Origin: Kiritimatiellia bacterium
GTDB taxonomy: Bacteria > Verrucomicrobiota > Kiritimatiellia > RFP12 > UBA1067
Direction of reading: 5' to 3'
Assembly: GCA_045636065.1 (NCBI GenBank)
Contig: JAZTWW010000036.1
Coordinates: 5,404 to 69,403, forward strand
DNA: 64,000 nucleotides
A program made the position numbers and the translations under genes. Of this stretch, positions 20,226 through 63,329 are shown one piece after another. The notes beneath the pieces were generated by a model, which was given only the letters and a program-made list of their open reading frames with translations, was not told the DNA's origin and searched no databases. Numbering within the stretch: the stretch's first letter is position 1; the number at the start of each line of letters is the position of its first letter.

Positions 20226-20344
20226 AGTCTCTGCTACACAAAAAAAATCTATCCCTCTATCCTCCCAACCGTATCATCTCGACCGTATCACAAGGGTCTG
20301 TCCCTCGCAATTCATCTAATCCTTAACAATTCCACCGACTTTCT

Positions 20345-24000: not shown

Positions 24001-24258
24001 CTTTCCGTGCTCGACGGTCTTCAGTTTTTCAATCGCCTCTTCAACCTGCGCATCCGTTATCCAGTCTCCGTTGATCCGCTTGAGTGCCGCCCGCACCGAC
24101 CGCCACAGCACCGTCTCCGACTTGTCCGCCCGCCCGAGCATCCCGTTCGGTCCAAACGTCTCGGCATCATACGCCAACACGCTCGTCCACCCGACGGCCT
24201 CCATCATTTTCGCCGCGGGTTCCTGCACGATGTTTTGTTCGGAATAGGTCCAGCTCAT
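21079..24258 (-). CDS. hsdR: type I restriction enzyme, R (endonuclease/translocase) subunit
   Basis: 1,059 aa with the N-terminal nuclease region, SF2 helicase motifs (GSGKSYSMV Walker A, DEAH box [11 protein letters not shown]) and a C-terminal helical domain. Confidence 0.92.
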
Positions 24259-24262
24259 GTGC

Positions 24263-29021: not shown

Positions 29022-29043
29022 TGCATCACTTTCTCAAATTTGG

Positions 29044-30702: not shown

Positions 30703-30720
30703 TTCAACCTCGCTTCCTCA

Positions 30721-32878: not shown

Positions 32879-32905
32879 ACAGTGATCCAATTATGGTGTT
32901 TATAA

Positions 32906-33475
32906 TTATAACATTTTAATGGTGGGGAGCACGAGATGATGGGCAATCTTCGCGCGAGCGAGGAACATCAAATCGACAATCCCGACGAATCGCGCTTTGA
33001 CATATTCCTGCCAGGTCTTGCCTTTGGGAAATTTTATGTTGCCCTTGCCACAGGTCGATTCCCAGCCGAACTCTGTTCCGGGATCAAACTTGACGACTTC
33101 AGCGCTGAACGGACTAGAATCAGGCTTCTTCCTCCCGAACCAAGCGACATCAACAAGGTTGTTCTGCTTGTTGCAAATCCATGACGGAGTAAAGACCTCT
33201 GAACGTTTCACCACGCGCTGACGCTGCTCCTCGGCGCTCTTGTCGACACGCGGACGGATCACGGGATTGTCCTTGTCGACAATCTGCTCTATCCGAATCT
33301 CGTCACCGGCACCGAATCCCTTGCCGCGCTCAGCATAGTCATCCGTCGCCCAAATAAGGTTTCGCCACGTCGATCGGTCTTTCAAGAGTACGGCAAGCAC
33401 TTCTTCTGGAATGTTCCATTCCAGAATGTCGCGGCCAAAGCCGCTTGTCCCCTTTGTGTTTTGCTTAATCATCAT
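32906..33475 (-). CDS. hypothetical protein (possible degenerate gamma-class MTase N-terminal fragment)
   Basis: SEVFTPSWICNKQNNLVD resembles MTase motif X (GxVyTPxxiVxxMv). KFDPGTEFGW is at most a degenerate motif I. No other motifs were found. Confidence 0.4.
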   Translation of the reverse strand: MMIKQNTKGTSGFGRDILEWNIPEEVLAVLLKDRSTWRNLIWATDDYAERGKGFGAGDEIRIEQIVDKDNPVIRPRVDKSAEEQRQRVVKRSEVFTPSWICNKQNNLVDVAWFGRKKPDSSPFSAEVVKFDPGTEFGWESTCGKGNIKFPKGKTWQEYVKARFVGIVDLMFLARAKIAHHLVLPTIKML

Positions 33476-33483
33476 TTCTAGGT

Positions 33484-33496
33484 TAATATTATACCA
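33484..33496 (-). promoter_or_regulatory. putative extended -10 (TGGTATAAT) overlapping the ORF6N stop, upstream of the 32906-33475 gene
   Basis: Minus strand caggaaTGGTATAATatt. The -10 is at plus 33488-33493, only about 12 nt before the ATG (near-leaderless). Confidence 0.35.
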
Positions 33497-34448
33497 TTCC
33501 TGTCGTTTTTACGCCCACCACAAACACTGACTTCTTGATGCGGCGAATATCGGCGGAATCTAGCTTCGTGAAGGCGAAGCACTTCTTGCCGAGGTCTTTC
33601 AGCGATGCGCCTATCAGGTAGAGTTCCTTGTCATCGACGATGAGAAAGCGGTCATGGAACGATTCATTGTAGCGAACGGAGAGCTCCGGGTATTGGGCGT
33701 TGAAGGTCTTGATATCGGCATCGGAAATCTTGCGGTGCGGCATGTGCTTCTTGTCGTAATGCTCCGACGTGAAGACCGTCACCTTCACGCCCTTGCGCTT
33801 CTTCGCGAAGAGGTCGAGCACCTCCGTCGTCGCCCAGTTGTCGATGAGCATCAGCGAACTCTTCGCTCCAGCGACCAGCTTCAGCACCAACGCCCGCGCA
33901 TCCCACAGCTGCCCGTCGTAAAACACGCCCTGAATAGGCGTTTCAGTCGCGTCAATGCGCTGCAGGATGGAATCTACTTTCGCATCCGTGGCAATCTGCC
34001 GCTTCTCCACCGCCTCGATTCGCTGAAACATCTGCGCGTTCGCAAGCAAGAACCGACGCATCGCAGAGAAGGCCCGCATAATGCGGATGTTCACTTCGAT
34101 GGCCGTAGGCGAACGGAGGACGCTGCTCAACATGGCAATACCATTTTCCGTAAAAGCGTATGGGAGCTGACGATCACCGCCCCAACTTGAGATGCCATTT
34201 TGGCATTTCAAGTTATCCCATTCTTCGGCGGACAGTCTGAACATGAAGTCCTCCGGGAATCGCTCTTCGTTGCGCTTGACCTGCCTGTTCAACGCCCCGG
34301 TCGCCACGCCATACAACCTTGCCACATCGCGATCAAGTATGACCTGCACTCCTCGAATAGGCTTGATCAACGCCTGAATGTTGCCCGTATCACTCACGAC
34401 AACAGCCTGTACTTGCTGACCGGAAATGGCATTCCCATTCTGCCTCAT
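33489..34448 (-). CDS. ORF6N (KilA-N-like) domain protein with unknown C-terminal domain
   Basis: IRGVQVILDRDVARLYGVATGALNRQVKRNEERFPEDFMFRLSAEEWDNL is a typical ORF6N/Rha-like N-domain. Start set at the ATG 34448 (AAAGGAGG RBS 5 nt upstream). Confidence 0.65.
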   Translation of the reverse strand: MRQNGNAISGQQVQAVVVSDTGNIQALIKPIRGVQVILDRDVARLYGVATGALNRQVKRNEERFPEDFMFRLSAEEWDNLKCQNGISSWGGDRQLPYAFTENGIAMLSSVLRSPTAIEVNIRIMRAFSAMRRFLLANAQMFQRIEAVEKRQIATDAKVDSILQRIDATETPIQGVFYDGQLWDARALVLKLVAGAKSSLMLIDNWATTEVLDLFAKKRKGVKVTVFTSEHYDKKHMPHRKISDADIKTFNAQYPELSVRYNESFHDRFLIVDDKELYLIGASLKDLGKKCFAFTKLDSADIRRIKKSVFVVGVKTTGMV

Positions 34449-34596
34449 GCCGCCTCCTTTACATCCGCAATCCGCTTGAGCAGCAGACAACTGGACTTAT
34501 CGCAATTTGCGACAAGTTCATACGTTTCAAGCCGCACGTCTGGCCGGACGGTCCCGTTCGGCTGGTCCACGGCAATCTGGGTTTCGCTTGCGCTCA
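34446..34596 (-). CDS. possible 49-aa upstream ORF translationally coupled (ATGA) to the ORF6N gene
   Basis: MSASETQIAVDQPNGTVRPDVRLETYELVANCDKSSCLLLKRIADVKEAA. Its stop overlaps the ORF6N start. A TTTGGTATAAT -10 lies 16 nt upstream of its ATG. Confidence 0.3.
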
Positions 34597-49440: not shown

Positions 49441-49517
49441 GTGCGCAATTCGCCATGCTTCGCGATTGACTCCAACCGTGGGATTTGGTAAAATTCGCGG
49501 CGAAAGGAACAAGGGGC

Positions 49518-51728
49518 ATGAAGAGTCAGGTGGAATCTTCGGCGGCCGGCACGGCCGCTGCATGGGTGCGCAAGGCCGTGGCGGTTGCGGCGATAGCGCT
49601 TTTTGCGGCCGGGGCGAAGGCGGACGACAGGGTGAACCTGTGGCCGCTTTACTACCGCGACGCCGACGGTTTCTCCGCAATCTGGCCGATAGTTTCCGTC
49701 TCCGGCAACCATTATGCCGTAAGGCCGCTCTATTCATGCTACTACGGAACTGAGCATAACGTCCTCTGGCCGATCGCACAGTTCGATACCGCCACCGGTG
49801 ACAACCGCATCTTCCCGGTATACTGGGGCAAGCGGTATTTCTTTGTATTCCCCGTCTTTGGCTGGAGCAAGGGGCTTGTGTCCGCCGGCGTCCTGTACTG
49901 GCACTACTGGGACAGGCACAAGACGGTAGACACGCTCTTCCCCCTCTGGTGGTGGGAAAGCAGAAACGATGGAAAGGACAGGACGTTCTGGTTCGCGGCG
50001 GGGCTTGGCGGCGGCAAGTGGAGCCGGGATTCGGGCATTTGGGAGCACTGGCTGCATCCGTTCTACTACTACGACCCCGATACGTTCATGTCGCTCCTGT
50101 ACTTCGACGACAGGTCCAGCTCGCTGCGTGTAAGGGCCATCCCGCTTCTGATGTCGGCATATTTGAACGGCCACGGGAAGGACGGCTTTTTCTCGCCATA
50201 CTTCACAAGATGGACATCGAGGGATGACGGTTCGACGCACACAAGGCTTCTCATGGGTCTTGCGGGATGGAACAGCCCCAAAGAGGGGGAGATGACGTTC
50301 TGGAGCGTGCCTTTCTTCTATACGAGCCCCGATTCCTTCGTCTCGCCGCTTTGGATATCTGAAAACGGCGGCGACGAGAGGTATAAGCTGGCCCCGCTTC
50401 TCCTCTCGGGATGGTACGGCAATCCATCGACAGGCGAATCGCATTGGCGCTTCCTCCTTGGGATGGCTGGAACCGACAGGGATGCTAAGGGGAATTTCGA
50501 ATCGTGGTGCTTCCCCGCGTACTACAAGGGCCGCGACATGTTCATAACGCCGCTCTACGGCGAATCGGGGGACTCGCGCTGGCTCTTCCCGGTATGGTAC
50601 GACGACAGCGATACGTTCGCCTCGGCAGCATGGTGCCACAAGCGAGGCGAGGACGGCTCCATCGACTGGTGGATGTGTCCGCCTCTTCTGTCCCGCTATT
50701 CGTACGACCGCGAAAGATCCGTCTCAAGGTTTACGGCGCTTCTCGGCCTCGCCGGCTGCGAAAGCGGCAAAGACGGGCTTGAAAGCCACTGGTTCATGCC
50801 GTTCTACTACCATGACGCCAACATGACAATGTACACTCCTCTCGCCGGCAGGCGCGGCGACTCGAGATGGATCGCGCCTCTTTACTACACCGACGAGACG
50901 TATTTCCTTTCGGCTCTATGGTGCAGCGAATCACGCCTTGGCGGCAAGTCGTTTGAATGGTGCGTGCCGCCTCTTTTGACGTGGTACTCGCGCAACGGCG
51001 ACTTCACGGAATGGGGCACGTACCTCATATACAGGGCGAACTCCAAGGGCGAATTCAAGTCGATACCCTACACCCATCGCCTGAGCGGCGGGTACGAAGA
51101 GTCTCTTTCCATGCTCGACTCCGCCACGCTCGACGACTCTATAAAGATCTGGGAGGAGCCGGTAACTAACAGGGATGGGGTAGTGTCGATGCGCCGCACG
51201 GCGGATAGGGTCAACCAGTACGACAAGCGCACTTTCATGCTCCTTTCCGACATGGACAGGGAAGTTCTCGGGTATCTTACCGGCGGGCATGACGATAATG
51301 GTTGCACCAACTATCTCCTGAAGGCGGCTTCAAAGGCAGGAAACTACCTTGTCGTGAACAGGGGAACGGAAAGGAAGGTCACCTACTCGTCCATAACGAG
51401 GGAGAAGACCGGCGATGTCGAAAAGGACGATTTGACTGTTCTCCTTTCGCTTCTCTACTGGTCCGAGTGCAGATACGACAGGATGACCGGCTCGACAAGT
51501 TCCGAAAGAAGCCTCCTCTGGCGCGTATGGCGCAGGAAAGAGAAGGACGGGGATGTCTCGGTGGACGCCATCCCCGGCTTCACGTACGATTCGAGGAAGG
51601 ACGGCTACAGGAAGACGTCGCTGCTCTGGCGGCTCTTCCGCTACGAGAACGATCCCGAAAAAGGGACGGCCGTGGACCTGCTGTTCATTCCCGTATGGCG
51701 CGCCTCCCGCCCCTCAACCGGCGACTGA
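49518..51728 (+). CDS. secreted W/Y/P-rich tandem-repeat protein (about 45-50-aa units, beta-propeller-like?)
   Basis: Signal peptide (MKSQV...AVAVAAIALFAAGAKA). Repeats such as FWSVPFFYTSPDSFVSPLWISE..., WCFPAYYKGRDMFITPLYGESGDSRWLFPVWYDDSDTF..., HWFMPFYYHDANMTMYTPLAGRRGDSRWIAPLYYTDETYF.... The only sizeable + strand gene in the window. Start set at the ATG 49518 with an upstream purine-rich RBS. Confidence 0.55.
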   Translation: MKSQVESSAAGTAAAWVRKAVAVAAIALFAAGAKADDRVNLWPLYYRDADGFSAIWPIVSVSGNHYAVRPLYSCYYGTEHNVLWPIAQFDTATGDNRIFPVYWGKRYFFVFPVFGWSKGLVSAGVLYWHYWDRHKTVDTLFPLWWWESRNDGKDRTFWFAAGLGGGKWSRDSGIWEHWLHPFYYYDPDTFMSLLYFDDRSSSLRVRAIPLLMSAYLNGHGKDGFFSPYFTRWTSRDDGSTHTRLLMGLAGWNSPKEGEMTFWSVPFFYTSPDSFVSPLWISENGGDERYKLAPLLLSGWYGNPSTGESHWRFLLGMAGTDRDAKGNFESWCFPAYYKGRDMFITPLYGESGDSRWLFPVWYDDSDTFASAAWCHKRGEDGSIDWWMCPPLLSRYSYDRERSVSRFTALLGLAGCESGKDGLESHWFMPFYYHDANMTMYTPLAGRRGDSRWIAPLYYTDETYFLSALWCSESRLGGKSFEWCVPPLLTWYSRNGDFTEWGTYLIYRANSKGEFKSIPYTHRLSGGYEESLSMLDSATLDDSIKIWEEPVTNRDGVVSMRRTADRVNQYDKRTFMLLSDMDREVLGYLTGGHDDNGCTNYLLKAASKAGNYLVVNRGTERKVTYSSITREKTGDVEKDDLTVLLSLLYWSECRYDRMTGSTSSERSLLWRVWRRKEKDGDVSVDAIPGFTYDSRKDGYRKTSLLWRLFRYENDPEKGTAVDLLFIPVWRASRPSTGD

Positions 51729-51788: not shown

Positions 51789-52928
51789 TCAGAATTCGTA
51801 GCCGAGGGCGAGGCGAAGGACGAGATCGGGCTTTTCGATTGAGCCGTTTACGGATTCGGAATGGATGTCCATGTCCTTCTGGCAGAAGCGGGCAAGGACA
51901 TCGAGCGAAATGTCGAAGCTGCAGATCCTGACGGTCGAGCCAAGACCGGCTATGCCGTAGCAGCGCCACTCGTCGAAAGTCTTGTGCGAGACATACCTTC
52001 CGCCCTCGCCGAACGAGGCGGAGACGGAATAGTCGAACTCGCTTCTCGTGACACCGAGGCCCAAGGTTCCGGTAAGGCGCCAGAAGTCCGTAACCTCCCA
52101 CCACGGCTTGAGCATGAAGGCAAATTCCCACTCTTCGTAGTCGCCTGTGGCGTTTATGGAATAATGGCCTGTATACGAACTGTAGTCGATCGTACCGGCG
52201 CCAAAGTCGCTGTAGTCGAGAACAGGACCGAATCCGCCGGAGCCGCCGGCACCGTAATACCCGCCGGACTCCTGAAGATAGGGAGAGGTGAGAACAGCAT
52301 AGTTGCTTGAGCCCGCGCTCGGCGTATAGACGTAGCTGGAACCGTCCATGTACGTTCCTGACGCCTTCGCCTTGAAGCAGCCGTTCCTCTTCATCCACGA
52401 CACCCCGAAGGCGAAATCAACACCGAATCCGCTTTCGTGCGCATACAAGGTGCGCGCGAGCTCAAGCGATGCGCCGTAGACGCTGGCGCTGTCGGAGGCG
52501 CTTCCGGAGATGCCGCCAAGCTGCGCGGAGTTGAGCGTCATCGCGCCGGTCGTGCGGTCAAGCCCGCTGACGGGAATGCGCCAGTTCTGCGTATACGGTG
52601 CCGACATGTTTCCGCTTGAAGGGTCGATGAACGCCCCGCCGAGGAACGAAACCCTCTCGCCGTTCGCCAGACGCTCCGAGATGTCGGATGGCGAACCGAT
52701 CGCCTGCGACGTGGCCGTCGAGTACGACGATCTCGGCGCGGAAAAGCCCATCTTTGTCTTGAGCCCGAAGCCCATGTTACCGCCGGCCGAAACGCGCCAT
52801 GGTCCGAAGCCGCGCCTCTCGCGCGAGACAAGCCCCTCGGAAGGCGTACCGGCCTCGCCGACCTCCACGTCCGCGAAGGCAAATGCCGCCGAGATTGCGG
52901 CAATGGCCGCAAATGCGAATCTGTTCAT
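51789..52928 (-). CDS. outer-membrane beta-barrel protein (C-terminal Phe)
   Basis: Signal peptide MNRFAFAAIAAISAAFAFA. Alternating amphipathic beta-strands with Gly/Ser/Tyr-rich loops. Ends ...LRLALGYEF, a typical OMP C-terminal signature. Start overlaps the stop of the upstream giant gene. Confidence 0.65.
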   Translation of the reverse strand: MNRFAFAAIAAISAAFAFADVEVGEAGTPSEGLVSRERRGFGPWRVSAGGNMGFGLKTKMGFSAPRSSYSTATSQAIGSPSDISERLANGERVSFLGGAFIDPSSGNMSAPYTQNWRIPVSGLDRTTGAMTLNSAQLGGISGSASDSASVYGASLELARTLYAHESGFGVDFAFGVSWMKRNGCFKAKASGTYMDGSSYVYTPSAGSSNYAVLTSPYLQESGGYYGAGGSGGFGPVLDYSDFGAGTIDYSSYTGHYSINATGDYEEWEFAFMLKPWWEVTDFWRLTGTLGLGVTRSEFDYSVSASFGEGGRYVSHKTFDEWRCYGIAGLGSTVRICSFDISLDVLARFCQKDMDIHSESVNGSIEKPDLVLRLALGYEF

Positions 52929-52942
52929 CTTATACCCCCTTC

Positions 52943-55900
52943 TCACTTGACGCTGTCGGCGATCGAAAGCTTCACCTTGAAGAACGAATAGCCCTCAGGG
53001 ACTTCAGCCGAGAAGCTGCCGTCTTCATCGCACTCCACAGTCGAGATTTCGGCAAACTCCTCTCCAAGCGACTTTGCACCCCAAAGTACGATGGAGGACC
53101 CCGCGCCGAGCGAACCGCGCTCGGAGCCGGCGCCAATCTCGACCGTACCGCTTATGGTGCCGTCCTCAACCAAGAAGTCCGCGAGCTTCAGATACGGCTC
53201 GCTGCTCTCCGTGACGGCTGCGCCGACGGCAAGCGATGCGTTCAGGTTCGCGACTGCAAGCGGCTTCGACGCGGACTTGAGCGAGACTGCGGAGAGGGAA
53301 TTTAGAAGCGGCGTGTTGGCGACGACCTCCACGAAGCTTGTGCATTCGCACGATTCATACCGCACGTACGCGACAAGGTTGTCAAGCTCGGGAACGTCCT
53401 TCGGGTTTCTCGGCCAGTACGACGGCGCATAGAGGAGTATCTCCGAAAGCGCTGCGTTGACCCAGACGGAATCGAACCAGGCCGCTCCCCATACGCCGGA
53501 ATCGGGGCCTTCCAGGCCGTTCTCGGCGAAACGGTCCTTGAGCGGCACCTTGAAGAATTCGACGCCGTCAATGGTCTCCACTGTGGAAACGGCCTTGTTG
53601 GCCTTGGCGTCCCAGAGCTGGATGCCGTCGCGCTTCTCGAGGAGGAAGCACATGTTGGTGACGGTGCCCGCCCAGCCGTCGCCGTCCTTTACCTCAAGGG
53701 CGATCTCCGGAACGTACATGCCGGAGAGCCAGTCAACGTTCCATTCCAGGGAGTCTAGCGTCACCACGGCGCCATCCCAGACGAGAGCGTACGTCGAAAG
53801 CTTCGCGCACCTTATGACGAGTTCGCCGGTCTCTTCGTTCACATTGAAGCATTCACCAAGTTCGTTCGCATTTGCGACGCCCTCGGGAAGGACCGCCACC
53901 GACCCGGTGGCAGGATCGCCCTCGACCTCCTCGTGGTAGCGGGCAACCCTGAAGTTGCGGCGGCCGCCAAGGGTGAAAGGCATAACCGACTCTACGAGCC
54001 CGTTGAAGAGCGAAAGGTCGTGGATGTTCGTGCTGAAGACGCCGTCCACGTACTTCGCGAGCGTGAAGTCCAGCGGCTTGACGTGACCCGCAGTAACCGC
54101 ATCCCTGATGCGCGAATACCCGCGTGTCGTGTCGGCGGCCGGCATGTCCTTCACCGTGAAGCGGATCTCGATCGATTTCCCGCGCTCGCCAGGGTTCACG
54201 GCCTTTCTGGCGATATCGTCAATGCCGCCTGCAACGGCGGGATAGTCGCCCGCGGCGGAGTTGTCCACGACGGAAGATCTGTCCCCGCCCGGATCCTCGA
54301 TCGTCTTCTCGCCCTTGCGCTCCGTATCGGGATCGTTATCGGCGAAAACGAGCGTCGTTATCGTCGTCACGTCGCCCTTGCCGCCGACGGCCTGGACGAC
54401 GACATCGTACGCGCCGGCGGACGGCAGTTCGCATACGTAGCGCCACGGACTCGACGACCCGAACACGCGCCCTTGGATGGCATCTTCGATCGTGGAGCCG
54501 ACGCCCCATGCGACGATGGAGGATATGCTCTCGAACTCCTCGCCCTCTATATCGCCGGAGACGACCACGTTTGTCGTCCAGACCGCGAAGAGGTCGTTCG
54601 TCACACCAAGCTCGAACTCGTCCGACACGAACTGCCTGTCGGCGAAGTCAAGATCGGCAAGGCCCTCCGCTTCCTCGTTGAAGCTCCAGCCGAGGTGGTT
54701 GAAGTTCTTCTTCTTGAAGGCGCAATCGCTCAGGCGCTGAGCGGGGGTGACAAAGCGCATCTCGACGTCCATCTCGCCGGAATCGGAGCCGTTGCCAAGG
54801 TACCTTATCCAGTAGAAGTCCACGTCAATCTCGAGGATGACCGTGATCGTGGCCGGCTTAAGGCCAATCATGTCATCCTCCCAGCACTTCCCTTCAAGAG
54901 TGATCGTGCGGACAATCTCCCTGGAGCCGGAGCTGCACGCCGCTTCAATGTCCGCCCTTGTGAACGGAACCATCCAAGAGACGCCCGTCATGTACGTCTG
55001 GCACTTGAGCTTCCTCAAGCGGAAGAACTCGCCGGCATCGGCCATAAGCCCCCACTCCTCGGCTTCGCCAGCCAGTATCTCAACTGCCGTGAAGGTCTTG
55101 TCGGTCGTCGATATCGTGACTGCCGCGTGCGCGGGGTCGGTGAATCTCGGCGTATGGATGATCTGTTCGACCATATGCGGCCATGGCACGCATAGCGGGA
55201 AGAAGAGATCCCCATCCTTTTCGATGAGCGCACACGAATCCATGCGAAGCCTGATTGTGGCCTCGGGGAACGGGAAACAGCTTTCAGGGGCCTTTTCTTC
55301 AATGACGAGCGGGATGGATGCCGTATACGTGCCGCCAAGGAGGATGCCGTCCTTCTGCACGGTCACGCTTGCCGTGTATTCGCCCGGATCGATCGGCGCC
55401 TCCGCGCTCTCCGTCCCGTCGGACGCCGTGTATACGATGTCGGAGACCGTTGCGCCCGTATTTATCACGAAAGTATTGAGGTTCGACACCGCAACTTCAA
55501 GCGGGGTCGCATCGAAGACCTTGCGGCCGCCCTCGACGGACGGGACGAGCTCTATGCCCATGGGAGAAGCGTTGCATTTGATTGAACGCAGCACGTTGCC
55601 GGGGCAGGTTGCAGTCACCTTCGCGCCATCCTCCTCGAAGCTCCATATGTGCAGGGAATGGCCTTCCGTCTCGATGGGAAGCTCCTTCTCGTTGATCCTG
55701 TACGTACCCTTGACAACGAGGTTGCAGCCCTCGGCAGTAGTCACTGTGACCGAAGCGGTATAGAGGCCGGCCTCGACGGGGACGCCGTCAAAAGGCTCGC
55801 CGTCCTTCGTGTAGGTGATCTCTCCAAGCTCAGCGCCCGTAATGGTCTCGAACGCGCCGGCGCTCACGAAGAGGTTGAAGATGTCCGTTATGATCTCGGA

Positions 55901-58756
55901 GAAACCCTCGTCCTCGGAAAGCCTGGTAAGAAGCTCAAGTATGCCGGCCGCATCGAGGTTTGAGAGGTCGCTTTCGAGGATCGCACCCGCCATGTCGAGA
56001 AGATTCGCGTTGCTGAGTACGGACGCCACGGTCGACATGTTTATAGCATAGAACTCGGCTGGATGCTCGTTGCGGTCGTAGTCGACTCTGATCTGCGGCA
56101 GAAGGCCGAACTTGCGGATGCCGACGACGCCTACGAGCTGACGGCCGGAGCAGTGCGAGATCTGCAAAGTGCCGTCCGCAAAGACCTTTGTGCAAGTCGC
56201 CACAAGGACGCGGTTCGCGAGCGAAACAAGCCTGTAGTGGTGTTCGTGCTTCTCGACGCACCAGTAGCTGCCCCTGCGCACGATGTCGTATCCCTCGGCG
56301 ATGAAGGATTCGTCGGGCTTGACGGAGAAGCGCCCGCCGCTGATGGATACGCTTCCGCCTTCGTTGCGGATCGTTCCGGTGAAAGTGCCGCCCTCGATGA
56401 CGAGGTCGCCCGTATTCACTATAACGGTATCGTCAGAAGATCCGGGGTTGGCCGAGACCTTGCCGGTGGAACCGGCGCTCGAATCCTTTATGGTGAGTTT
56501 GCCGTTGTTCTGGAAGAGGGGGCCGTCCTGAACGGCCGTCACCGTGAAGCCCGCGAGATCGTACGTCTTGCGGCCGCACTGGAGGTTCAATATGCCATAC
56601 CTCTCGGGCGTAATGTAAGTCTTGGCGGCGGTGTAGCTCTTTCCGGCGGAGATCTCCATCGCATCGCCCGTGGCGCGCTCCAGATAGGTCGCGGCATCCT
56701 TGACGTGTATGCCGTCCATGCTCGCCTCGCCGGCCAGGATTTCAAGGCCTTCGAGCCTAAGTGTCCAGCTCTCAGCCTCCCCTTCCTCGGGGACCGGCTC
56801 CGTCACCACGGCATAAGCCGTATATCTGCCGGGTTCAACCGGGGCCGATTCAAGGGTGGCACCGGCTTCATCCAGATATCCCACCTCGCCGATCGTAGCG
56901 CCCGTAAGCGCGAATTTCTCAGCTCCTTCAAGGATGGCTTCAGCCGGAACGCCGTCGCGGTAGTGGCCCTCGGCATACGCCTCGTTACGCGAATCCTTGG
57001 ATACGATCGACAGGTCGAGCGATCCCTCGGTATACGCAAGGAAGCATCCAGGAGCCGCGCAGGACGCCGTGAGCGTAACGCCGTCGTCGGAAAGAGAATA
57101 GCTCCAGTCGTGGGTGTGCTGGGGATAGACCTGCTCGCCATCCCCGTTCAAAAGGAAGATGCTGTCCAGGCCGAGGCTTACGGTGAATTCCGTATCCTTG
57201 AGGCCCTGGACGTCTCCTTGCGTTTCATCGCCCCAGGCGACGCTTCCGCAGACGATCGAGAACTCGAGATTCTCCGCGCCTGATTCCACCGCGGCCGCCA
57301 CATCATCGGCAAAGATGGATACGGTCCATGTCAGGGTATCGAAATATGTGTACGACACCGGATTTATCAAAAAGCCGTCGATCTCGTAGTAGGTGGCCTG
57401 GTTTGTCGTTGCGGAAAGCCCGTACCATTCGCCGTCGAGGATCTCGTTGCCGTACGCTACCTCATCCTCCCCCACCGCTACAGCGGCATGTTTTGCATCC
57501 GTGTACTGGACGCGGGTCGCGACCTGCTGGAAGAAATATGTATCGTACTCGGTGACTTCATGCGGCCAGCGGATCTCGACGGCGGCCTCCCAGCGCTCGC
57601 CGAACTCGTCGTTCTTGTATACGAGCAGAACGGAATCGGTGATGTCGAGGCGGCGGCTATTGGCAGGATCGATCGTTCCATACGCGGGATCGCCTGAGCG
57701 TATGCTCATCGCATCTTCGGCGAACTCGCCCGTGGGTTCGACTATCTTCCATGTTGCGCTTGCCGAACCGGCATAGTTTCCCGTTCCGTTTATGGTCACG
57801 GTGTATTCGCCAACTGTAGAGGCCGTAAAGACGCTATCCTCAGAAACCGTGTAGTCGGTCCCCTCCTGAAGGGTGGCGTTCCCAAGCGTGACGCTTGAAA
57901 TCTCGATCTGGATGTCGCAGTCGCGCACTATGACCTCCGTCGCCGAGAGTGTGATCGCGGCGTCGGTTATCTGGGTAGGCTCATTGAACACAAGCTTCCA
58001 TACGTCGCCATCCTTGACGGCCGAGAAGTTGTCGGGGTATCCGACAGGCTCCACGAAGAACTCCATGCCCTTTTCGCCCATTGCCGCGATGACGCCCGCC
58101 GCCACGGCAAGCTCCATGTCGCCGTACACCTTGCCGTCGACGAGCGCAAGCGCGGGATACCAGATTTTTCCGTTGCCGTCCTTGAGGACCGTTGTCTTCG
58201 GGACCGTTATCGTGTACGTATCGCCGCCTACGGTGAGCGTTGCGACATAGTCCTTGCCCTCCAGCGAGAGCGCATGCATCGTCTCCGGCGTAACCCACAC
58301 GTTCCAGTCCGTATACTTCATGTAGGATGTGGTGCCGCCAAGCTGGAACTCGTTCTTGATTCCGCTCCCATCGGGCGAATTCTCGACCATGATGCCAATA
58401 ATGCTCCTGGCGACTGCATAGTCATCGACCGATCTGCCGGCGTTGTCGCTGAAGGCCGCGTGCGTATCGGCGGTTTTGGTGCCGGTGTACTTTATGTTCA
58501 GAATGGTACCGGTATAGGAGAGCGCCCATGTACGCCTTAAGCCGGCATACCAGCCTTCCTCCTCGCGGTTTAGGCTGTCGTTGGACGATGGCGACATGTA
58601 GACGAGCTCATTGGCCGTCCAATCGTTTCCATTTGCCGTTAGCGCCCCTGTCGCTGCAACAACCGAGTCGGTAGTCACGTCGACGGCAAACGCCGGGATG
58701 GCGCATGCGAGCATAAACAAAGGCACAATAAACCGTTTGCAGCTGCATTTAACCAT
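52943..58756 (-). CDS. giant secreted/surface protein (~1,937 aa; Ig-like/beta-rich repeats, adhesin-like)
   Basis: Signal peptide (KRFIVPLFMLACAIPAFA). Long T/S/G/V/D/E-rich beta-type sequence with no catalytic motifs. Start set at the ATG 58756 (GAGGTG RBS). The track start at 58786 is a GTG inside an 18-nt tandem duplication. The 3' end overlaps the OMP gene start (ATGA). Confidence 0.7.
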   Translation of the reverse strand: MVKCSCKRFIVPLFMLACAIPAFAVDVTTDSVVAATGALTANGNDWTANELVYMSPSSNDSLNREEEGWYAGLRRTWALSYTGTILNIKYTGTKTADTHAAFSDNAGRSVDDYAVARSIIGIMVENSPDGSGIKNEFQLGGTTSYMKYTDWNVWVTPETMHALSLEGKDYVATLTVGGDTYTITVPKTTVLKDGNGKIWYPALALVDGKVYGDMELAVAAGVIAAMGEKGMEFFVEPVGYPDNFSAVKDGDVWKLVFNEPTQITDAAITLSATEVIVRDCDIQIEISSVTLGNATLQEGTDYTVSEDSVFTASTVGEYTVTINGTGNYAGSASATWKIVEPTGEFAEDAMSIRSGDPAYGTIDPANSRRLDITDSVLLVYKNDEFGERWEAAVEIRWPHEVTEYDTYFFQQVATRVQYTDAKHAAVAVGEDEVAYGNEILDGEWYGLSATTNQATYYEIDGFLINPVSYTYFDTLTWTVSIFADDVAAAVESGAENLEFSIVCGSVAWGDETQGDVQGLKDTEFTVSLGLDSIFLLNGDGEQVYPQHTHDWSYSLSDDGVTLTASCAAPGCFLAYTEGSLDLSIVSKDSRNEAYAEGHYRDGVPAEAILEGAEKFALTGATIGEVGYLDEAGATLESAPVEPGRYTAYAVVTEPVPEEGEAESWTLRLEGLEILAGEASMDGIHVKDAATYLERATGDAMEISAGKSYTAAKTYITPERYGILNLQCGRKTYDLAGFTVTAVQDGPLFQNNGKLTIKDSSAGSTGKVSANPGSSDDTVIVNTGDLVIEGGTFTGTIRNEGGSVSISGGRFSVKPDESFIAEGYDIVRRGSYWCVEKHEHHYRLVSLANRVLVATCTKVFADGTLQISHCSGRQLVGVVGIRKFGLLPQIRVDYDRNEHPAEFYAINMSTVASVLSNANLLDMAGAILESDLSNLDAAGILELLTRLSEDEGFSEIITDIFNLFVSAGAFETITGAELGEITYTKDGEPFDGVPVEAGLYTASVTVTTAEGCNLVVKGTYRINEKELPIETEGHSLHIWSFEEDGAKVTATCPGNVLRSIKCNASPMGIELVPSVEGGRKVFDATPLEVAVSNLNTFVINTGATVSDIVYTASDGTESAEAPIDPGEYTASVTVQKDGILLGGTYTASIPLVIEEKAPESCFPFPEATIRLRMDSCALIEKDGDLFFPLCVPWPHMVEQIIHTPRFTDPAHAAVTISTTDKTFTAVEILAGEAEEWGLMADAGEFFRLRKLKCQTYMTGVSWMVPFTRADIEAACSSGSREIVRTITLEGKCWEDDMIGLKPATITVILEIDVDFYWIRYLGNGSDSGEMDVEMRFVTPAQRLSDCAFKKKNFNHLGWSFNEEAEGLADLDFADRQFVSDEFELGVTNDLFAVWTTNVVVSGDIEGEEFESISSIVAWGVGSTIEDAIQGRVFGSSSPWRYVCELPSAGAYDVVVQAVGGKGDVTTITTLVFADNDPDTERKGEKTIEDPGGDRSSVVDNSAAGDYPAVAGGIDDIARKAVNPGERGKSIEIRFTVKDMPAADTTRGYSRIRDAVTAGHVKPLDFTLAKYVDGVFSTNIHDLSLFNGLVESVMPFTLGGRRNFRVARYHEEVEGDPATGSVAVLPEGVANANELGECFNVNEETGELVIRCAKLSTYALVWDGAVVTLDSLEWNVDWLSGMYVPEIALEVKDGDGWAGTVTNMCFLLEKRDGIQLWDAKANKAVSTVETIDGVEFFKVPLKDRFAENGLEGPDSGVWGAAWFDSVWVNAALSEILLYAPSYWPRNPKDVPELDNLVAYVRYESCECTSFVEVVANTPLLNSLSAVSLKSASKPLAVANLNASLAVGAAVTESSEPYLKLADFLVEDGTISGTVEIGAGSERGSLGAGSSIVLWGAKSLGEEFAEISTVECDEDGSFSAEVPEGYSFFKVKLSIADSVK

Positions 58757-58791
58757 AACACACCTCACTTCTTTAACACACCTCACTTCTT
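58756..58791 (-). repeat. perfect 18-nt tandem duplication (aagaagtgaggtgtgtta x2 on the minus strand) covering the RBS and start of the giant gene
   Basis: Plus strand taacacacctcacttctt at 58756-58773 and again at 58774-58791. Confidence 0.75.
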
Positions 58792-58842
58792 TGCAATGTC
58801 GCGCACATCACACGGAAACATGGATAAAGTGGGCGCAACCAT

Positions 58843-58873
58843 CTGGTTCAAAAAAAGAACCAGTTTAATTATA
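58843..58873 (+). terminator. canonical intrinsic-terminator-like hairpin oriented on the + strand (CTGGTTC-AAAAAAA-GAACCAG then TTTAATTAT), overlapping a minus-strand TTTGATATAAT -10 element
   Basis: 7-bp stem at 58843-58849 / 58857-58863, 7-A loop, T-rich tail on the + strand. The minus-strand -10 (TATAAT) is at plus 58868-58873, upstream of the giant gene. Confidence 0.4.
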
Positions 58874-58898
58874 TCAAATCTGCGGGCCGTCTGCAATC

Positions 58899-59813
58899 TC
58901 AAAAAAGCTCGACGGGCATCTTCCTGAGTTCGCCCGGAATGTCGACGACGAACCTCGGCAAGGCAAGCCCCCCGATGCGCTCCGCACAGCAGGCGGAAAG
59001 CTCCTGCGCCCTTTCGATGGGAACGCGGAAGTGGTCTATGCCCGGTATAGGATCGCACTGGAAGACGTAGTACGGCCTCACCCTTGCGCGCTGGAGCGAT
59101 CTGAAAAGCTCAAGAAGCGTCTCGACATCGTCGTTGACGCCTGCAAGAAGAACGGTCTGGCAGCTCACCGGTATGCCGGCATCGACAAGGCGTGAACATG
59201 CGGCCACGGCTTCGGCGGTAAGTTCGTCCGGGTGGTTGAACTGCGTGTTGAGCCAGACCTTCTTCGATTCGGCGAGCCGCGAGACGAGCCCGGGCGTGAG
59301 CCTCATGGGATTCGTGCATGGGGCGCGCGTACATAGCCTTACGACATCGATCTGCTCGAGCGTTGCGAAAGAATCGATGAAGCGCATGACCTCGTCGTCC
59401 GGCAGGACGAGCGGATCGCCTCCTGAGACGAGCACATCGCGCACCTTGGGGTGCGAATGGACGTAAGCGACGGCCTGCGCGAGATCCTCGTCGGTTCTTA
59501 CGACTGGAACGCTTTTGAGGATATGCTTGCGCGTACAGTGGCGACAGTTCATGAAACAGCTGTCGCTGGCCATGACGAGAACGCGGTCCTCGAAACGCTG
59601 CACGAGCCCGGGACATCCGGTTGAGGCGGCCCCATCCCCCATCTCGCCGAAGGGATCGGCGCTTTCGAACCCGTCGGGGGCTATTTCGCGGATATCCGGC
59701 ATCACCTGCTTCGCGAACGCGGGGCTTTTCGCCGCAAGCGCGCGGCAGTAGGCGTTCGCCACATAGGGGAAGCGCTCAACAACCGCCTTCATTTTCATTC
59801 CGGAGTCTTTCAA
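58899..59813 (-). CDS. KamA-family radical SAM protein (lysine 2,3-aminomutase / EpmB-like)
   Basis: CxxxCxxC radical-SAM cluster motif in KamA context (SDSCFMNCRHCTRK). The 304-aa length is typical of EpmB/YjeK-like members. Confidence 0.8.
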   Translation of the reverse strand: MKDSGMKMKAVVERFPYVANAYCRALAAKSPAFAKQVMPDIREIAPDGFESADPFGEMGDGAASTGCPGLVQRFEDRVLVMASDSCFMNCRHCTRKHILKSVPVVRTDEDLAQAVAYVHSHPKVRDVLVSGGDPLVLPDDEVMRFIDSFATLEQIDVVRLCTRAPCTNPMRLTPGLVSRLAESKKVWLNTQFNHPDELTAEAVAACSRLVDAGIPVSCQTVLLAGVNDDVETLLELFRSLQRARVRPYYVFQCDPIPGIDHFRVPIERAQELSACCAERIGGLALPRFVVDIPGELRKMPVELF

Positions 59814-61726
59814 GCGGTAGCCTCCGGGATTTCACGCTCCTCGCATATCCAGTGGCGCACCTTGGCGCCGGCGGCGTGGCACACTTCGGCTATGTGCTTA
59901 AGGCGCGCTTCGCCGATAAGGCACGTGATGACGACCGTATCGATCTTCTCGCGCTCAATCGTGGCGGCGGCGTCCTTTAGGGTGCCGAAGATGGGGATCG
60001 TCCCGATGCGGTGGCCCTTGAGGAGGATGTCGTCGTCGAGGATGCCGACTATCAGGCGTTTCGTCTGGCCGGTGGCCCTTACGAGCTCGCGCCTGTAGGA
60101 GCGGTACCTGAGCCCGGCGCCGTACACGAGTATCCTTTCGACGTCCGGCTGCGATTCAAGCTGCACGCGGCCTATAAGATAGAATATGTCGCGGACGATT
60201 CCCCGCATGGCACGCCACCATGTAAGGCCGAGGCTTCCGAGGGCGAAATAAATTATCGCAAGGCTTTCGAGGCGCGGAATCGCCATGTCGAGGAAGAAGA
60301 TGGCGGCCGTGCCGATTGCCGTTCCGAGGAAGGAAGCTATCATGAGGCGGAAGAAGTCGGCCGTGGTGGCCCTGCTCCAGACGGTCCTGTAGCATCTGAA
60401 TACGACGAGACTCAGGAACGCTGGGACGATGAATATCGGGAAGATGCGCCTTATTGTCGGGAGATCGGGGGTAAGCCCGGCAAGCGACACCGCGACTATC
60501 CATGCAAGGCAGAGAACGAGTATGTCGATGACGATGGAGACGGGCACCCTGAGCATCCTTCTGCGGCGGAACGTGTGGAGATCCCGCCTGAAGGCGACGT
60601 TCTTGAGAAGACGGCCGGCGTCCCAGAGCTCGATGCGCTCCATGTCCTTCACTACGACGTACGTGCCGACGACGAACGCTATTATGTAGAGGCCCGCCGC
60701 ACGGTTCTTGAGCGCGAGGCCCAGCATGCCTATACCGACAAGGCCTATCGCCATGAGATAGAGCGTCTTTGCGGCCGTTCGCTGGTTTGCGACCTGCCTG
60801 AGGATCCTGTGGTGGAGATGGTCGGCATCGGCCGTCATCAGCTTTCCGTTCCCGACGGGCCTGCCCTTTTCCTGCTTCTTGAGAGCCGCCCTTATCGTAC
60901 GCCTTATGATGGCAAGGCTCGTATCGAAGATCGGAACGCCCATCGCGAGGATCGGAACGCCTATCGAAAGGAAGAGCGATTCCCTGGAGCCTGTCAGGAG
61001 CGAAATGGTGGCAAGCGAGAAGCCAAGGAACATCGAGCCCGTATCGCCGAGGAATATGCTCGCCGGGTGGAAGTTGTACCTGAGGAAGGCGAGGCATCCG
61101 CCGGCGAGCGCGCAGTGGGCTATCATGGCGCCGGGGCGGCCCGAGAAGAGGAGCGCGCCGCCCATGCCGACGCATGCTATGAACGCAAGGCCGCTCGCAA
61201 GCCCGTCAAGGCCATCTATTAGGTTGAACGCGTTTATTGCACCGACGATCCAGAACACTGTAAGAAGCACGTCCAGCCATTCGGGAATCATCGGCAGCGC
61301 ATTGTGGAAACCCGCCCCGCAGAGGAAATGGACCGCAAGCGCCACGATTATCTGACCGAGCAGCTTCACCTTCGGCGGAAGCGAGAACTTGTCGTCCGCA
61401 AGGCCGATCGCGACGAGCACGGCGGCAATCGCGTTGAAGCGGTAGACGATTGCGTTATCGACGCCAGGGATGACGCCGTTGCCGGTAATGAGGGCGTATG
61501 CGACCGTCACCGCACCGGAGGCGATGAATATCGCAAGCCCGCCGGCGCGGGGGATAGGCGTCTTGTTGATGCGCCTGGGGCCGGGCTTGTCGACCATCCC
61601 AAGGCGGCTGAAGAGTTTGCGGCAGAGAGGCACAAGCACCAGGCCGAGCAGAAGGGAGCCGAAGAACACGGCCAAATACGGCGCTGCTGCGTCGAAAGCG
61701 CTTTCAAGTGCGTTCAAAATGGTCAT
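59810..61726 (-). CDS. polyprenyl-phosphate N-acetylhexosamine-1-phosphate transferase (GT4 MraY/WecA family) fused to a C-terminal cytoplasmic Rossmann/CoA-binding-like domain
   Basis: About 10 TM segments with MraY/WecA family motifs (...NAFNLIDGLDGLASG...). C-terminal VYGAGLRYRS...ILDDD... resembles the N-terminal domain of WbaP/EPS priming transferases. Confidence 0.8.
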   Translation of the reverse strand: MTILNALESAFDAAAPYLAVFFGSLLLGLVLVPLCRKLFSRLGMVDKPGPRRINKTPIPRAGGLAIFIASGAVTVAYALITGNGVIPGVDNAIVYRFNAIAAVLVAIGLADDKFSLPPKVKLLGQIIVALAVHFLCGAGFHNALPMIPEWLDVLLTVFWIVGAINAFNLIDGLDGLASGLAFIACVGMGGALLFSGRPGAMIAHCALAGGCLAFLRYNFHPASIFLGDTGSMFLGFSLATISLLTGSRESLFLSIGVPILAMGVPIFDTSLAIIRRTIRAALKKQEKGRPVGNGKLMTADADHLHHRILRQVANQRTAAKTLYLMAIGLVGIGMLGLALKNRAAGLYIIAFVVGTYVVVKDMERIELWDAGRLLKNVAFRRDLHTFRRRRMLRVPVSIVIDILVLCLAWIVAVSLAGLTPDLPTIRRIFPIFIVPAFLSLVVFRCYRTVWSRATTADFFRLMIASFLGTAIGTAAIFFLDMAIPRLESLAIIYFALGSLGLTWWRAMRGIVRDIFYLIGRVQLESQPDVERILVYGAGLRYRSYRRELVRATGQTKRLIVGILDDDILLKGHRIGTIPIFGTLKDAAATIEREKIDTVVITCLIGEARLKHIAEVCHAAGAKVRHWICEEREIPEATA

Positions 61727-62430
61727 GGAAGCTCCTTTTCAAGTGCGGACATGAACTCCTCCATCATGCCCATGTCGCCCGCATCGGTCAAGTCGAGACC
61801 TCTCTGACTGCCTGGACGGGAGGCGTTTATGGTAACCATCACCCAGCGGTCAACCCGGTTGTGGAGAGATCTGTCGAGGACATCCCTGAATATGCGATCG
61901 ATATGGGATGACGTCCTGAATCCCTCCTGGTTGAAGAACGTGTATGCAAGGGCCGCAGACTCGAGGCCATGGCCGGAGAAGCCGACTATGTTGAACGGAC
62001 GGCCGTTTATGTCCGCCTGCCTCTTGACCTTCATCTGGAAGCCCTGGGACGGGAGACAGAGCTCCGGACGGTGGAGCGATGCCCTGGAAACGCCGCCCAG
62101 CACCATTGAAACGGTGAAATGCACTCCCATCGGCGAGATGAAAAGCCGCTTCGTTATGCGCGTATCGGCTGGCAGGACCCTGAACTCGGCAAGCGACATG
62201 CCTTTCAATTCGCCGCCGCACGCGGGACACTTTTCCGCCCCCTCAAGATCGGCGAGGGCGTAGCTCATCGAGCACTGCTCCTCCTGGCAGTACATTATCC
62301 CGTCAGAACGGTATCCGGGGAGATCCTGCGGAAGCGAATGGTCTAGGGGTGGAAGGATCTGCGGATCGGGACTCAACGCCTGATAGGCGAAGATGGGGAT
62401 GAGGATGGCTGCGAATATCCAGCGTTTCAT
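61723..62430 (-). CDS. exosortase-associated EpsI-family protein
   Basis: Periplasmic protein encoded immediately downstream of, and overlapping (ATGA), the exosortase gene. Its size and position match EpsI. Call is by synteny, with weak motif support. Confidence 0.55.
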   Translation of the reverse strand: MKRWIFAAILIPIFAYQALSPDPQILPPLDHSLPQDLPGYRSDGIMYCQEEQCSMSYALADLEGAEKCPACGGELKGMSLAEFRVLPADTRITKRLFISPMGVHFTVSMVLGGVSRASLHRPELCLPSQGFQMKVKRQADINGRPFNIVGFSGHGLESAALAYTFFNQEGFRTSSHIDRIFRDVLDRSLHNRVDRWVMVTINASRPGSQRGLDLTDAGDMGMMEEFMSALEKELP

Positions 62431-63329
62431 TCCGCACCTCCCTTGCCCACTTTGGCGGCGCGCTGTCTTCTTCTGTCGAAGAGTCTGTCGATTATCTCGC
62501 TTACAGCAAGCATGAGGAGTATCGCCACGATGAAGACTATGTAGCCGGAATAGTCATGGTAGAATCCGGTGCCGAACTCATGGCCGAACGCGGCGCTCAC
62601 GAGGCATATGGAGACTATCCTTACAACGTTTCCTATTACGGCCAGCGGAACGGAGAAGGCGAAAAGTATCGCCCTTCTCGTCCAGGTGGGCTGGTAGAGC
62701 CTTGCGTAGGCGGCCGTGAGCGCCATAAGGGCGAAGAGGCTCCTGAGGCCGCTGCATGGCTCCGCCACGTCAATTGAGAACGGGACCGAACCGGTTGCGT
62801 AGATCGCAGTCCCCTGCTGGACCGCCGATATGCCGAACCCGTTGAGAACGCCCAGCGCCGTCGAGCTTGCAAGGAGGCGCAGGTGGATCGTTACGACATC
62901 GAGAAATGTCGCAAGGGGTATGGTGAAAAGGAGGTAGGCCGCCGGGAATGCGCATCTTTTTGCCGTCCGCCAGCCGAAGAACGCCCATGGGAGCGCTATG
63001 CAAAGCCCTATGAAACCGAGCTGTTCAAGCCTTAGCTGAAGGCCTCTTGCGCCTATGAACGCGAGGGCCAGGCAGGGGAGGGTTGCAATGAAGCCTGCGA
63101 TGCTCGGCTTGCCAAGCGATTCGGCGATGGCCTTCCTGTCCTCCCAGAGAAGGTAGATCGAAAAGAGCGGCACGAGGGCGCCGAAGGTCATATCCTCTTC
63201 TTTTGCGTTGAAAAAGATATCTATTGCGCGTCCGAACATCGCATGGAAGCCGATGAGAGCCGCACAAACCGTCACCCAAAATGGAATGTACTTTCCTGTG
63301 TCGCCTTTAACCAACAATCCCCCTTTCAA
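62427..63329 (-). CDS. exosortase (Xrt family transpeptidase)
   Basis: 8-TM protein with the exosortase active-site region DVAEPCSGLRSLFAL (Cys-Ser-Gly-x-Arg) and a downstream conserved Asn/Arg region. Confidence 0.75.
   Translation of the reverse strand: MKGGLLVKGDTGKYIPFWVTVCAALIGFHAMFGRAIDIFFNAKEEDMTFGALVPLFSIYLLWEDRKAIAESLGKPSIAGFIATLPCLALAFIGARGLQLRLEQLGFIGLCIALPWAFFGWRTAKRCAFPAAYLLFTIPLATFLDVVTIHLRLLASSTALGVLNGFGISAVQQGTAIYATGSVPFSIDVAEPCSGLRSLFALMALTAAYARLYQPTWTRRAILFAFSVPLAVIGNVVRIVSICLVSAAFGHEFGTGFYHDYSGYIVFIVAILLMLAVSEIIDRLFDRRRQRAAKVGKGGAE

Follow-up and report, generated by a model that had tools for sequence, protein, structure and literature searches.

Results

Organization of the locus

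The gene pair described here comes from an uncultured gut Kiritimatiellia bacterium, and is located on the minus strand of a stretch of 64,000 nucleotides of DNA that was analysed as a whole (hereafter the window). The window is chromosomal, as it carries tig-clpP-clpX, hisS, prfA, metK and a tRNA-Met gene. The pair consists of a gene for a very large secreted protein (the giant) and, directly 3' of it, a gene for an outer-membrane protein (the barrel). Judging from their relatives, both open reading frames (ORFs) are genuine genes, since the giant has 12 full-length orthologues and the barrel has 20 homologues in a family of about 115 clusters. The positions of the two genes and of their features are listed in Table 1.

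Table 1. Features of the giant-barrel gene pair, in positions of the window
Feature	Positions	Strand	Basis and remarks
Non-coding gap between radical-SAM gene and giant gene, 112 nt	58787-58898	minus	hairpin at 58843-58863 and A+T-rich stretch TTGATATAATTAAA
Giant gene, secreted protein of 1,937 aa	52943-58756	minus	ORF list and translation; stop codon TGA (52943-52945) included
Sec signal peptide of giant, aa 1-24	58685-58756	minus	read from sequence; MVKCSCKRFIVPLFMLACAIPAFA followed by VD (...AIPAFA/VD)
N-terminal region of giant, aa ~25-545, in common with the paralogue giant A	57122-58684	minus	BLASTP
Barrel-associated C-terminal module of giant, aa ~1693-1937	52946-53680	minus	ends ...EGYSFFKVKLSIADSVK
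Intergenic spacer, 14 nt	52929-52942	minus	GAAGGGGGTATAAG; Shine-Dalgarno-like run as ribosome-binding site; conserved ATG not overlapped
Barrel gene, outer-membrane protein of 379 aa	51789-52928	minus	stop included; signal peptide, variable N-terminal tail of ~25 aa, predicted eight-stranded barrel
Barrel loop L1, aa 64-128, extracellular by topology	52545-52739	minus	DSSP on model; contains a helix; motifs FLxGAxIDP and YTQNWRxP (alignment A1)
Barrel loop L2, aa 202-246, extracellular by topology	52191-52325	minus	motifs TPSxGSxN, GGYYGxG and GPVLDxSDF
C-terminal beta-signal strand of barrel	51792-51821	minus	...PDLVLRLALGYEF (...LALGYEF); G376 nearly invariant and F379 invariant in alignment A1, both nearly invariant in A3

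The ATG start of the giant gene is preceded by GAGG. The TGA stop of this gene (52943-52945) and the ATG start of the barrel gene (52926-52928) are separated by 14 nt. A sequence-only reading had earlier described a two-gene arrangement at this place; the two ORFs, their signal peptides and the ...LALGYEF end of the barrel all stand, and the overlap of stop and start codons that it had reported has given way to the 14-nt spacer. Such an overlap (GTGA) arises only with an upstream GTG start, which would lead to a barrel protein of 385 aa; this GTG is not the start conserved among the homologues, to which the ATG of the 379-aa protein corresponds. In the related loci with called genes, the spacer between the two genes is 11-28 nt long, with one case of a 4-nt overlap. 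The giant and barrel genes are thus tightly linked without overlapping in the window, and are almost certainly co-transcribed.

Further 5' of the giant gene lie a radical-SAM gene, a gene for a GT4 sugar transferase, an EpsI-like gene and an exosortase gene. The non-coding gap that separates the radical-SAM gene from the giant gene likely represents the boundary of the two-gene unit and its putative promoter region; a promoter scan called no sigma-70 site in this gap. We have treated these four genes as unrelated neighbours, because they are not found beside the pair at other loci and because the giant has no PEP-CTERM tail. The possibility that the giant is a PEP-CTERM/exosortase cargo was thus rejected: the protein ends in ...VPEGYSFFKVKLSIADSVK, without a hydrophobic helix or an Arg-rich tail, and the exosortase gene is not beside the pair elsewhere.

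The giant protein and its relatives

The full-length orthologues of the giant comprise a protein identical to it (P0022) and 11 others (P0023-P0033) with 54-64% identity. Compared with the window protein, the longer orthologues, of ~2,270-2,350 aa, contain an inserted segment of ~330-410 residues. The signal peptide, as read from the sequence, has no lipobox; the homologues have equivalent cleavage sites of the form ...AFA/(T/D), and the Cys residue at position 18 is not conserved among them. The giant matches no Pfam or NCBIfam family at cut-off, a sequence search of the PDB returned no relative, and no internal repeats were detected in a BLAST search of the protein against itself at E <1e-3. 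Similarly, no enzyme or ligand-binding domain was recognisable in it by the Pfam, NCBIfam and PDB sequence searches.

In BLASTP comparisons, P0035 and the upstream proteins of two related loci (L010 and L012) align to aa 7-545 of the giant with 38-39% identity. Within this region, aa ~266-350 form an MBG-like Ig stretch, with short matches to large MBG-domain adhesins of Gram-positive bacteria. The Pfam matches of the window protein itself in this part are restricted to sub-threshold hits to CBM_X2 and Sgo0707_N2 at aa 285-310, and the MBG_3 cut-off is exceeded by its paralogues P0035 and P0036. Many related loci encode, directly upstream of the pair, another large protein of 1,165-1,717 aa, which we call giant A; the window has no gene for it. 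Giant A shares with the giant ~250-545 residues at the N-terminus and, at the tail, the short motif EFFK(I/L)xIE. The giant's ~245-aa C-terminal module, searched for with a hidden Markov model (HMM), was not found in giant A. Taken together, the giant looks like a large multi-domain protein that is made mostly of Ig/Fn3-type sandwiches and resembles an adhesin; its beta-rich character was examined for the last 288 residues, in a structural model of moderate confidence.

The barrel protein and its predicted fold

An AlphaFold2 (AF2) model of the barrel, for which 21 homologues were used as input, is confident over residues 44-379 (mean pLDDT 85). According to DSSP, the model contains eight strands, of which b2, b3 and b4 measure ~32-35 residues, and b5 and b6 ~23-25 residues. 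The strands form a closed barrel that superposes on OmpA at 1.5 Å; the next structural matches are a Legionella porin of the eight-strand class, the N-terminal domain of OprF, a designed eight-strand barrel, TtoA, OmpW and NspA. In agreement with this, OmpA, Ail and OmpX were matched in a Foldseek comparison with a probability of 1.0 and target TM-scores of 0.5-0.63, and the TM-scores against FadL were <0.2. At the sequence level, a profile search of the PDB found OmpX with no better than a weak E value (~0.1), and the window barrel has no Pfam match at E up to 1 and belongs to no NCBIfam family at cut-off. Within its family, however, five of 61 members match Pfam OMP_b-brl (best E 1.8e-6), and two of 61 match the OprF membrane domain. 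Existing Pfam models therefore reach only a few members of the family. As predicted by the model, the barrel is an eight-stranded outer-membrane barrel of the OmpA/OmpX/OprF class, and the OMP_b-brl and OprF matches of its relatives point to the same class independently of the model.

The protein has in common with OmpA, OprF, OmpX, Ail, NspA and OmpW the closed antiparallel barrel of eight strands that the model predicts, and differs from these proteins in several aspects. With 379 aa it is about twice their size, it has strands of ~32-35 residues and structured loops of 65 and 45 residues, and it lacks the periplasmic OmpA_C peptidoglycan-binding domain; furthermore, an obligate pairing with a large secreted protein is not typical of those families. 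Since three of the strands have ~32-35 residues, the barrel is expected to protrude in part well beyond the membrane and to be capped by the loops. On the periplasmic side there are only short turns and the N-terminal tail, which is short, variable in the alignment and disordered in the model. The protein ends in a beta-signal strand; a terminal aromatic residue is a mark of BAM substrates.

Loops L1 and L2 are placed outside the cell by the usual topology, in which both termini are periplasmic. In the close clade, the two loops are conserved on a par with the strands (majority fraction of 0.69 for L1 versus 0.66-0.80), and their motifs are invariant. Such conservation is unusual for exposed loops, and would fit a binding surface. 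In the wider barrel family, L1 and L2 diverge faster than strands b5-b8.

Distribution of the family and conservation of the pair

A word-indexed search for barrel homologues returned 21 proteins with lengths of 370-404 aa. Of these, one has the same sequence as the window barrel, and the other 20 are 38-66% identical to it. When run with a profile, the word-indexed protein search found mostly the same close relatives, plus one distant relative labelled Kiritimatiellae. A HMMER profile search of 1.84 billion protein representatives yielded 115 clusters at E ≤1e-3, 58 of which were matched at E ≤1e-30, and the full-length matches were mostly 340-420 aa long. A GTDB scan detected the barrel in only two reference genomes, i.e. 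a metagenome-assembled genome (MAG) named 'Kiritimatiellia bacterium' and 'Verrucomicrobia bacterium UBA3841'; the remaining loci are from ENA, JGI and Logan metagenome assemblies. A scan with the pattern of a 23-row alignment found only four close metagenome loci. By the results of these searches, the two-gene cassette is specific to the Kiritimatiellia (PVC group) and forms a lineage-restricted family.

There are 13 distinct loci in which the upstream gene is readable, and in all 13 the barrel gene directly follows, on the same strand, a gene whose product is a large secreted protein. These loci are the window, L001/2, L003-5/7, L006, L008, L009, L010/12, L013/14, L015/16, L017, L018, L019, L023 and L024-27. 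A lineage-specific, dedicated pair had been suggested before on the basis of the window alone, and this suggestion is supported by the related loci; the opposite situation, a generic porin beside unrelated genes in relatives, was never encountered among the 13. Each locus contains exactly one barrel, and a barrel without a partner was never seen in the readable loci. The genes farther out vary between the loci, and include those for histidine kinases, priA, Mla genes, esterases and glycosidases. Three barrels with an identity of at most 40% to the window barrel have a readable context, namely P0062 (40%, locus L023), P0021 (38%, L009) and P0098 (~28%, L024); for a further one, P0176, the upstream gene lies beyond the contig end. 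Outside the readable loci we infer three further barrel-giant pairs from contigs of matching length, and by extrapolation the coupling might hold for all of the ~115 clusters.

Beside the barrel-family loci in L012 and L021/L022 there are genes for a secretin and for a PilN-like protein or a pseudopilin (N_methyl). This neighbourhood occurs in these two loci only, and could be a coincidence.

The C-terminal module of the giant

The part of the giant that accompanies the barrel is located at its C-terminus. In an AF2 model of aa 1650-1937 (mean pLDDT 61), this module consists of a mixed alpha/beta domain (aa ~1693-1801), a linker (aa ~1802-1850) and a terminal beta-sandwich of seven strands (aa ~1851-1933), which is modelled with a pLDDT of 66-88. 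The linker is of low confidence in the model and is probably flexible. The module HMM was run against every stop-to-stop ORF of 80 aa or more from the window and 27 loci. The matches were the genes immediately upstream of each barrel, and there was no other match among the 919 of these ORFs that have at least 150 aa.

The distant loci indicate how much of the giant is kept together with the barrel. In L023, a 443-aa tail of the partner can be read, and aligns with aa 1502-1937 of the giant at 31% identity. In L024 the partner has only 844 aa, ends in ...VPEGTAFFRFRLDADDTLK, and matches the giant solely at aa 1699-1937 (31.5% identity, E 4e-26). In L009, a search with filters off revealed that the partner has kept the first domain of the module (E 9e-10), which is followed by ~270 unrelated residues. 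The terminal sandwich has thus been replaced in this protein, so that the module is not obligatory in all its parts. Loops L1 and L2 of the L009 barrel have diverged no differently from those of P0062, whose partner has the full module. Judging from these comparisons, the element that is co-inherited with the barrel is the C-terminal module of ~245 aa or its first domain.

Discussion

A proposed docking model for the pair

The analysis has identified a real, conserved and previously unannotated gene pair, in which the known logic of a cargo tail and an anchor barrel would recur in a little-studied phylum. We propose that the C-terminal module of the giant has in the barrel a dedicated dock at the cell surface, the giant itself being exported by another route, and we consider the chances for and against this proposal to be about even. 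The giant would be exported by Sec and would then cross the outer membrane via another machine, plausibly a secretin-based type II-like system. Its C-terminal module of ~245 aa would then bind the barrel, presumably at a face made up of the protruding sheet and the loop cap, and the barrel would thereby hold the giant at the cell surface. The surface location of the giant is suggested by its domain types and by the topology of the barrel, and module-barrel binding, like the binding face and the export route, is a deduction from the comparisons described above.

It had also been supposed in the sequence-only reading that the pair could resemble two-partner, inverse-autotransporter or usher-like systems, i.e. 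that the barrel could be the outer-membrane translocator of the giant in the manner of TpsB for TpsA, of an usher for pilins, or of an autotransporter beta-domain acting in trans. The tight and conserved adjacency of the genes and the Sec signal on the giant are in agreement with such a function, and so is the fact that the cassette encodes no other transporter. It is nevertheless highly improbable. The reading itself had remarked that the barrel is small and has no known anchor or TPS motifs, and this holds true: no POTRA, ShlB, autotransporter, inverse-autotransporter or usher match was found with Pfam and NCBIfam, and eight strands are predicted. The barrels known to conduct proteins are built of 12 to 36 strands, and eight-stranded barrels of the OmpA/OmpX class are not known to provide a polypeptide channel. 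The largest number is that of SprA, with 36 strands (PMC9143113). A closed eight-stranded barrel, which superposes on OmpA as closely as the modelled one does, cannot conduct a 200-kDa polypeptide; provided that the model is right, this removes the two-partner, usher and autotransporter-in-trans readings alike, and the short, variable N-terminal tail, which is disordered in the model, also argues against them. Of the two functions left open in the phrase "surface-anchoring or secretion pair", anchoring thus remains and secretion through the barrel does not.

The other explanations that have to be weighed accept that the barrel is not a conduit. One of them is that the giant is periplasmic and is held from below, through the turns of the barrel or its N-terminal tail, as a structural element of the envelope. 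The giant has a Sec signal only, searches with Pfam and NCBIfam found in it no signal of any known type for export across the outer membrane, and a gene for a dedicated exporter was not found within the 64-kb window, all of which would agree with a periplasmic protein. The conserved and elaborate parts of the barrel, however, are its loops, which the topology places outside the cell, its periplasmic parts being short, variable or disordered, and MBG/Ig-type domains are known from surface adhesins; a tether of this kind is therefore rather unlikely. We also regard it as unlikely, to a similar and slightly greater extent, that the two proteins are partners in uptake, the barrel being an importer of small hydrophobic molecules of the OmpW/AlkL type, the giant a surface protein that captures the ligand and passes it on, and a shared substrate the reason for the linkage. 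OmpW is indeed among the structural matches, but OmpA, OprF and NspA score at least as high, family members match the OMP_b-brl and OprF profiles and not that of OmpW, and the giant has no recognisable ligand-binding or enzyme domain. Moreover, docking would still be needed for such a partnership, which would thus extend the docking model and not replace it.

Finally, the pair might be a coincidental operon; the barrel would then serve an independent structural function as a small outer-membrane protein of a general kind, and the synteny would simply have been inherited within a narrow clade. Most of the loci do come from one clade, in which the barrels have 49-66% identity, and the fold class is very common among outer-membrane proteins. 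Against this, the coupling is kept at 40%, 38% and ~28% barrel identity, where all other neighbours have changed and the partner retains only the C-terminal module or its first domain, and there is one barrel per locus, never without its partner. Mere coincidence is therefore quite improbable.

Comparison with known systems

The closest parallel to the proposed dock is found in the T9SS (type IX secretion system) of Bacteroidota, in which proteins with a C-terminal domain (CTD) of type B are held on the cell surface by a cognate, adjacently encoded barrel of the PorP/SprF type, e.g. SprB by SprF in Flavobacterium johnsoniae and PG1035 by PorP in Porphyromonas gingivalis (PMC9143113). As in these cases, a very large Sec-exported protein with a conserved C-terminal domain is encoded next to a dedicated barrel that is not the translocon, and the body of the cargo varies while its C-terminal domain and the barrel are kept together. 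On the other hand, the pair described here belongs to the Kiritimatiellia in the PVC group and not to the Bacteroidota, its barrel is predicted to have eight strands whereas PorP-like proteins are 14-stranded barrels of the FadL type (PMC9143113), and the binding of cargo and barrel, demonstrated there, is here deduced. Membership of the pair in the T9SS itself was rejected: NCBIfam searches at E up to 1 gave no T9SS C-terminal-domain or PorP/SprF model, and the FadL TM-scores are <0.2. In addition, no genes for the T9SS core (SprA/Sov and PorK/L/M/N) were seen in the 64-kb window and the loci of ~20 kb.

More tentatively, and with odds that we would place somewhat below even, the Kiritimatiellia may have an unrecognised surface-display system, in which a dedicated, tall eight-stranded barrel of the ~115-cluster family would recognise a module of ~245 aa (or its first domain of ~110 aa) that is carried by large secreted proteins with no other relationship to each other. 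The export route would possibly involve a secretin, and the system would be convergent with the pairing of type B CTD and PorP in the T9SS, with another class of barrel and another way of export.

With two-partner secretion, the pair has in common the adjacency of the genes and the combination of a large, beta-rich protein bearing a Sec signal with an outer-membrane barrel. In our case, however, the element of linkage is C-terminal and not N-terminal, and the barrel gene is located 3' of the cargo gene. An assignment to the TpsA/TpsB class was rejected, as the barrel has no POTRA or ShlB match at E up to 1 and is not a 16-stranded Omp85 protein, and the giant has no TPS (Haemagg_act) domain. 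Likewise, the pair does not belong to the classical or inverse autotransporters, in which a 12-stranded beta-domain (Autotransporter, IAT_beta) and its passenger are parts of the same chain. A more remote comparison can be made with Glt of Myxococcus xanthus, a multi-protein motility machine. Its outer-membrane proteins are reported to serve as a platform which retains the adhesin CglB (PMC9946355); that such proteins hold a surface adhesin and do not export it is a likeness in concept. CglB is described there as an outer-membrane lipoprotein with a vWA domain (PMC9946355), and the layout of the genes differs from that of the giant-barrel pair. Between this pair and Glt/CglB, no relationship in sequence or domains was found.

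Significance of the pair

Kiritimatiellia are common in gut and sediment communities and are nearly uncultured. If the docking model is true, it would provide a rule to predict which proteins of these bacteria are anchored at the surface, and a function for a barrel family of ~100 sequence clusters; it would also constitute a second, independent case of the cargo-tail and anchor-barrel logic of the Bacteroidota type IX system. If, instead, an adhesin and a structural outer-membrane protein do no more than share a conserved operon, the practical benefit would be limited to better annotation.

A last observation concerns two cysteine residues, C184 of the barrel and C1909 of the giant, both of which are present in all close pairs and both of which are absent in L024. 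Their joint absence from L024 represents one evolutionary event, and an intermolecular disulfide between them is possible. The alignment column of C184 is otherwise occupied by hydrophobic residues (I, L, V, A or F), suggestive of a buried position.

Conserved cysteines and C-terminal ends

A cysteine of the barrel, the 379-aa outer-membrane protein (Cys184), and one in the terminal beta-sandwich of the giant, the 1,937-aa Sec-signal protein encoded upstream (Cys1909), are both kept in all close pairs and in that of locus L023, and both are missing from the distant pair of locus L024. As their joint presence and absence amounts to a single evolutionary event, it is a hint only. In most homologues the terminal sandwich also holds a second cysteine (...EPYC...), which is Leu in the giant of the window, so that Cys1909 would be unpaired there.

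A short tail of the form (F/W/Y)F(K/R)(V/I/L)x(V/I/L) recurs at the extreme C-terminus of several large secreted proteins that the related loci encode and that are otherwise unrelated; among them are a NAGPA-domain protein, a Flg_new-repeat protein and all the partner proteins encoded directly upstream of barrel genes. The tail may be the sign of a more widespread terminal sandwich or sorting class in the lineage.

Genes near the pair

Directly 5' of the barrel-linked giant, many related loci encode a second large secreted protein of 1,165-1,717 aa, giant A, which shares with that giant the N-terminal ~250-545 residues, lacks its C-terminal 245-aa module and ends in EFFK(I/L)xIE(K/R)D; the window contains no giant A gene. 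Secretin genes lie near barrel-family genes in two loci, L012 and L021/L022, and in the latter a 1,553-aa Choice_anch_L/CLIPPER/CARDB protein comes after the barrel.

In the window, an exosortase-type locus (58899-63329, minus strand) adjoins the giant directly upstream. No PEP-CTERM protein was seen within the window, nor does the giant itself belong to that class.

Features of the window and of related loci
Feature	Position	Strand	Remark
Barrel Cys184	~52377-52379		barrel aa 184
Giant Cys1909	~53030-53032		giant aa 1909
Tail-bearing proteins	L001 14565-17525; L024 6285-9296
Giant A	L010 107-4828; L012 3241-7968; L013 4396-7893; L003 1-2988
Secretin, PilN-like gene	L012 16884-22176
Secretin, two N_methyl pseudopilin genes	L021/L022 6049-9917
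Radical-SAM protein	58899-59813	minus	exosortase-type locus
GT4 sugar transferase	59810-61726	minus	same; CoA_binding_3 domain
EpsI-like DUF3485 protein	61723-62430	minus	same
Exosortase EpsH	62427-63329	minus	same
747-aa ORF	49485-51728	plus	convergent with barrel gene
Bacterial alpha-2-macroglobulin, 1,454 aa	6025-10389	minus	MG2, bMG3, bait region, TED, bMG10
RadC	within ~20300-34500	minus	low-GC island
HsdR, type I restriction-modification	21079-24258	minus	same
HsdS, type I restriction-modification	24263-25468	minus	same
Schlafen/AlbA_2-HATPase_c_4 protein	25465-27222	minus	same
HsdM, type I restriction-modification	27219-29021	minus	same
AAA_15/AAA_21 ATPase	29044-30702	minus	same
D12 adenine methylase	30721-31590	minus	same
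ORF6N protein	33489-34490	minus	same

Other genes in the window

The N-terminus of the 747-aa ORF resembles a signal peptide, and its sequence contains many repeats rich in W/Y/F, of the form (W/F)P(L/F)YY...F.SPL; it was assigned to no Pfam family, and a counterpart is absent beside the pair in the other loci. The alpha-2-macroglobulin gene is unrelated to the giant-barrel pair. Finally, an island on the minus strand (~20300-34500), with a GC content of 44-56% against about 60%, looks like an acquired defence island.
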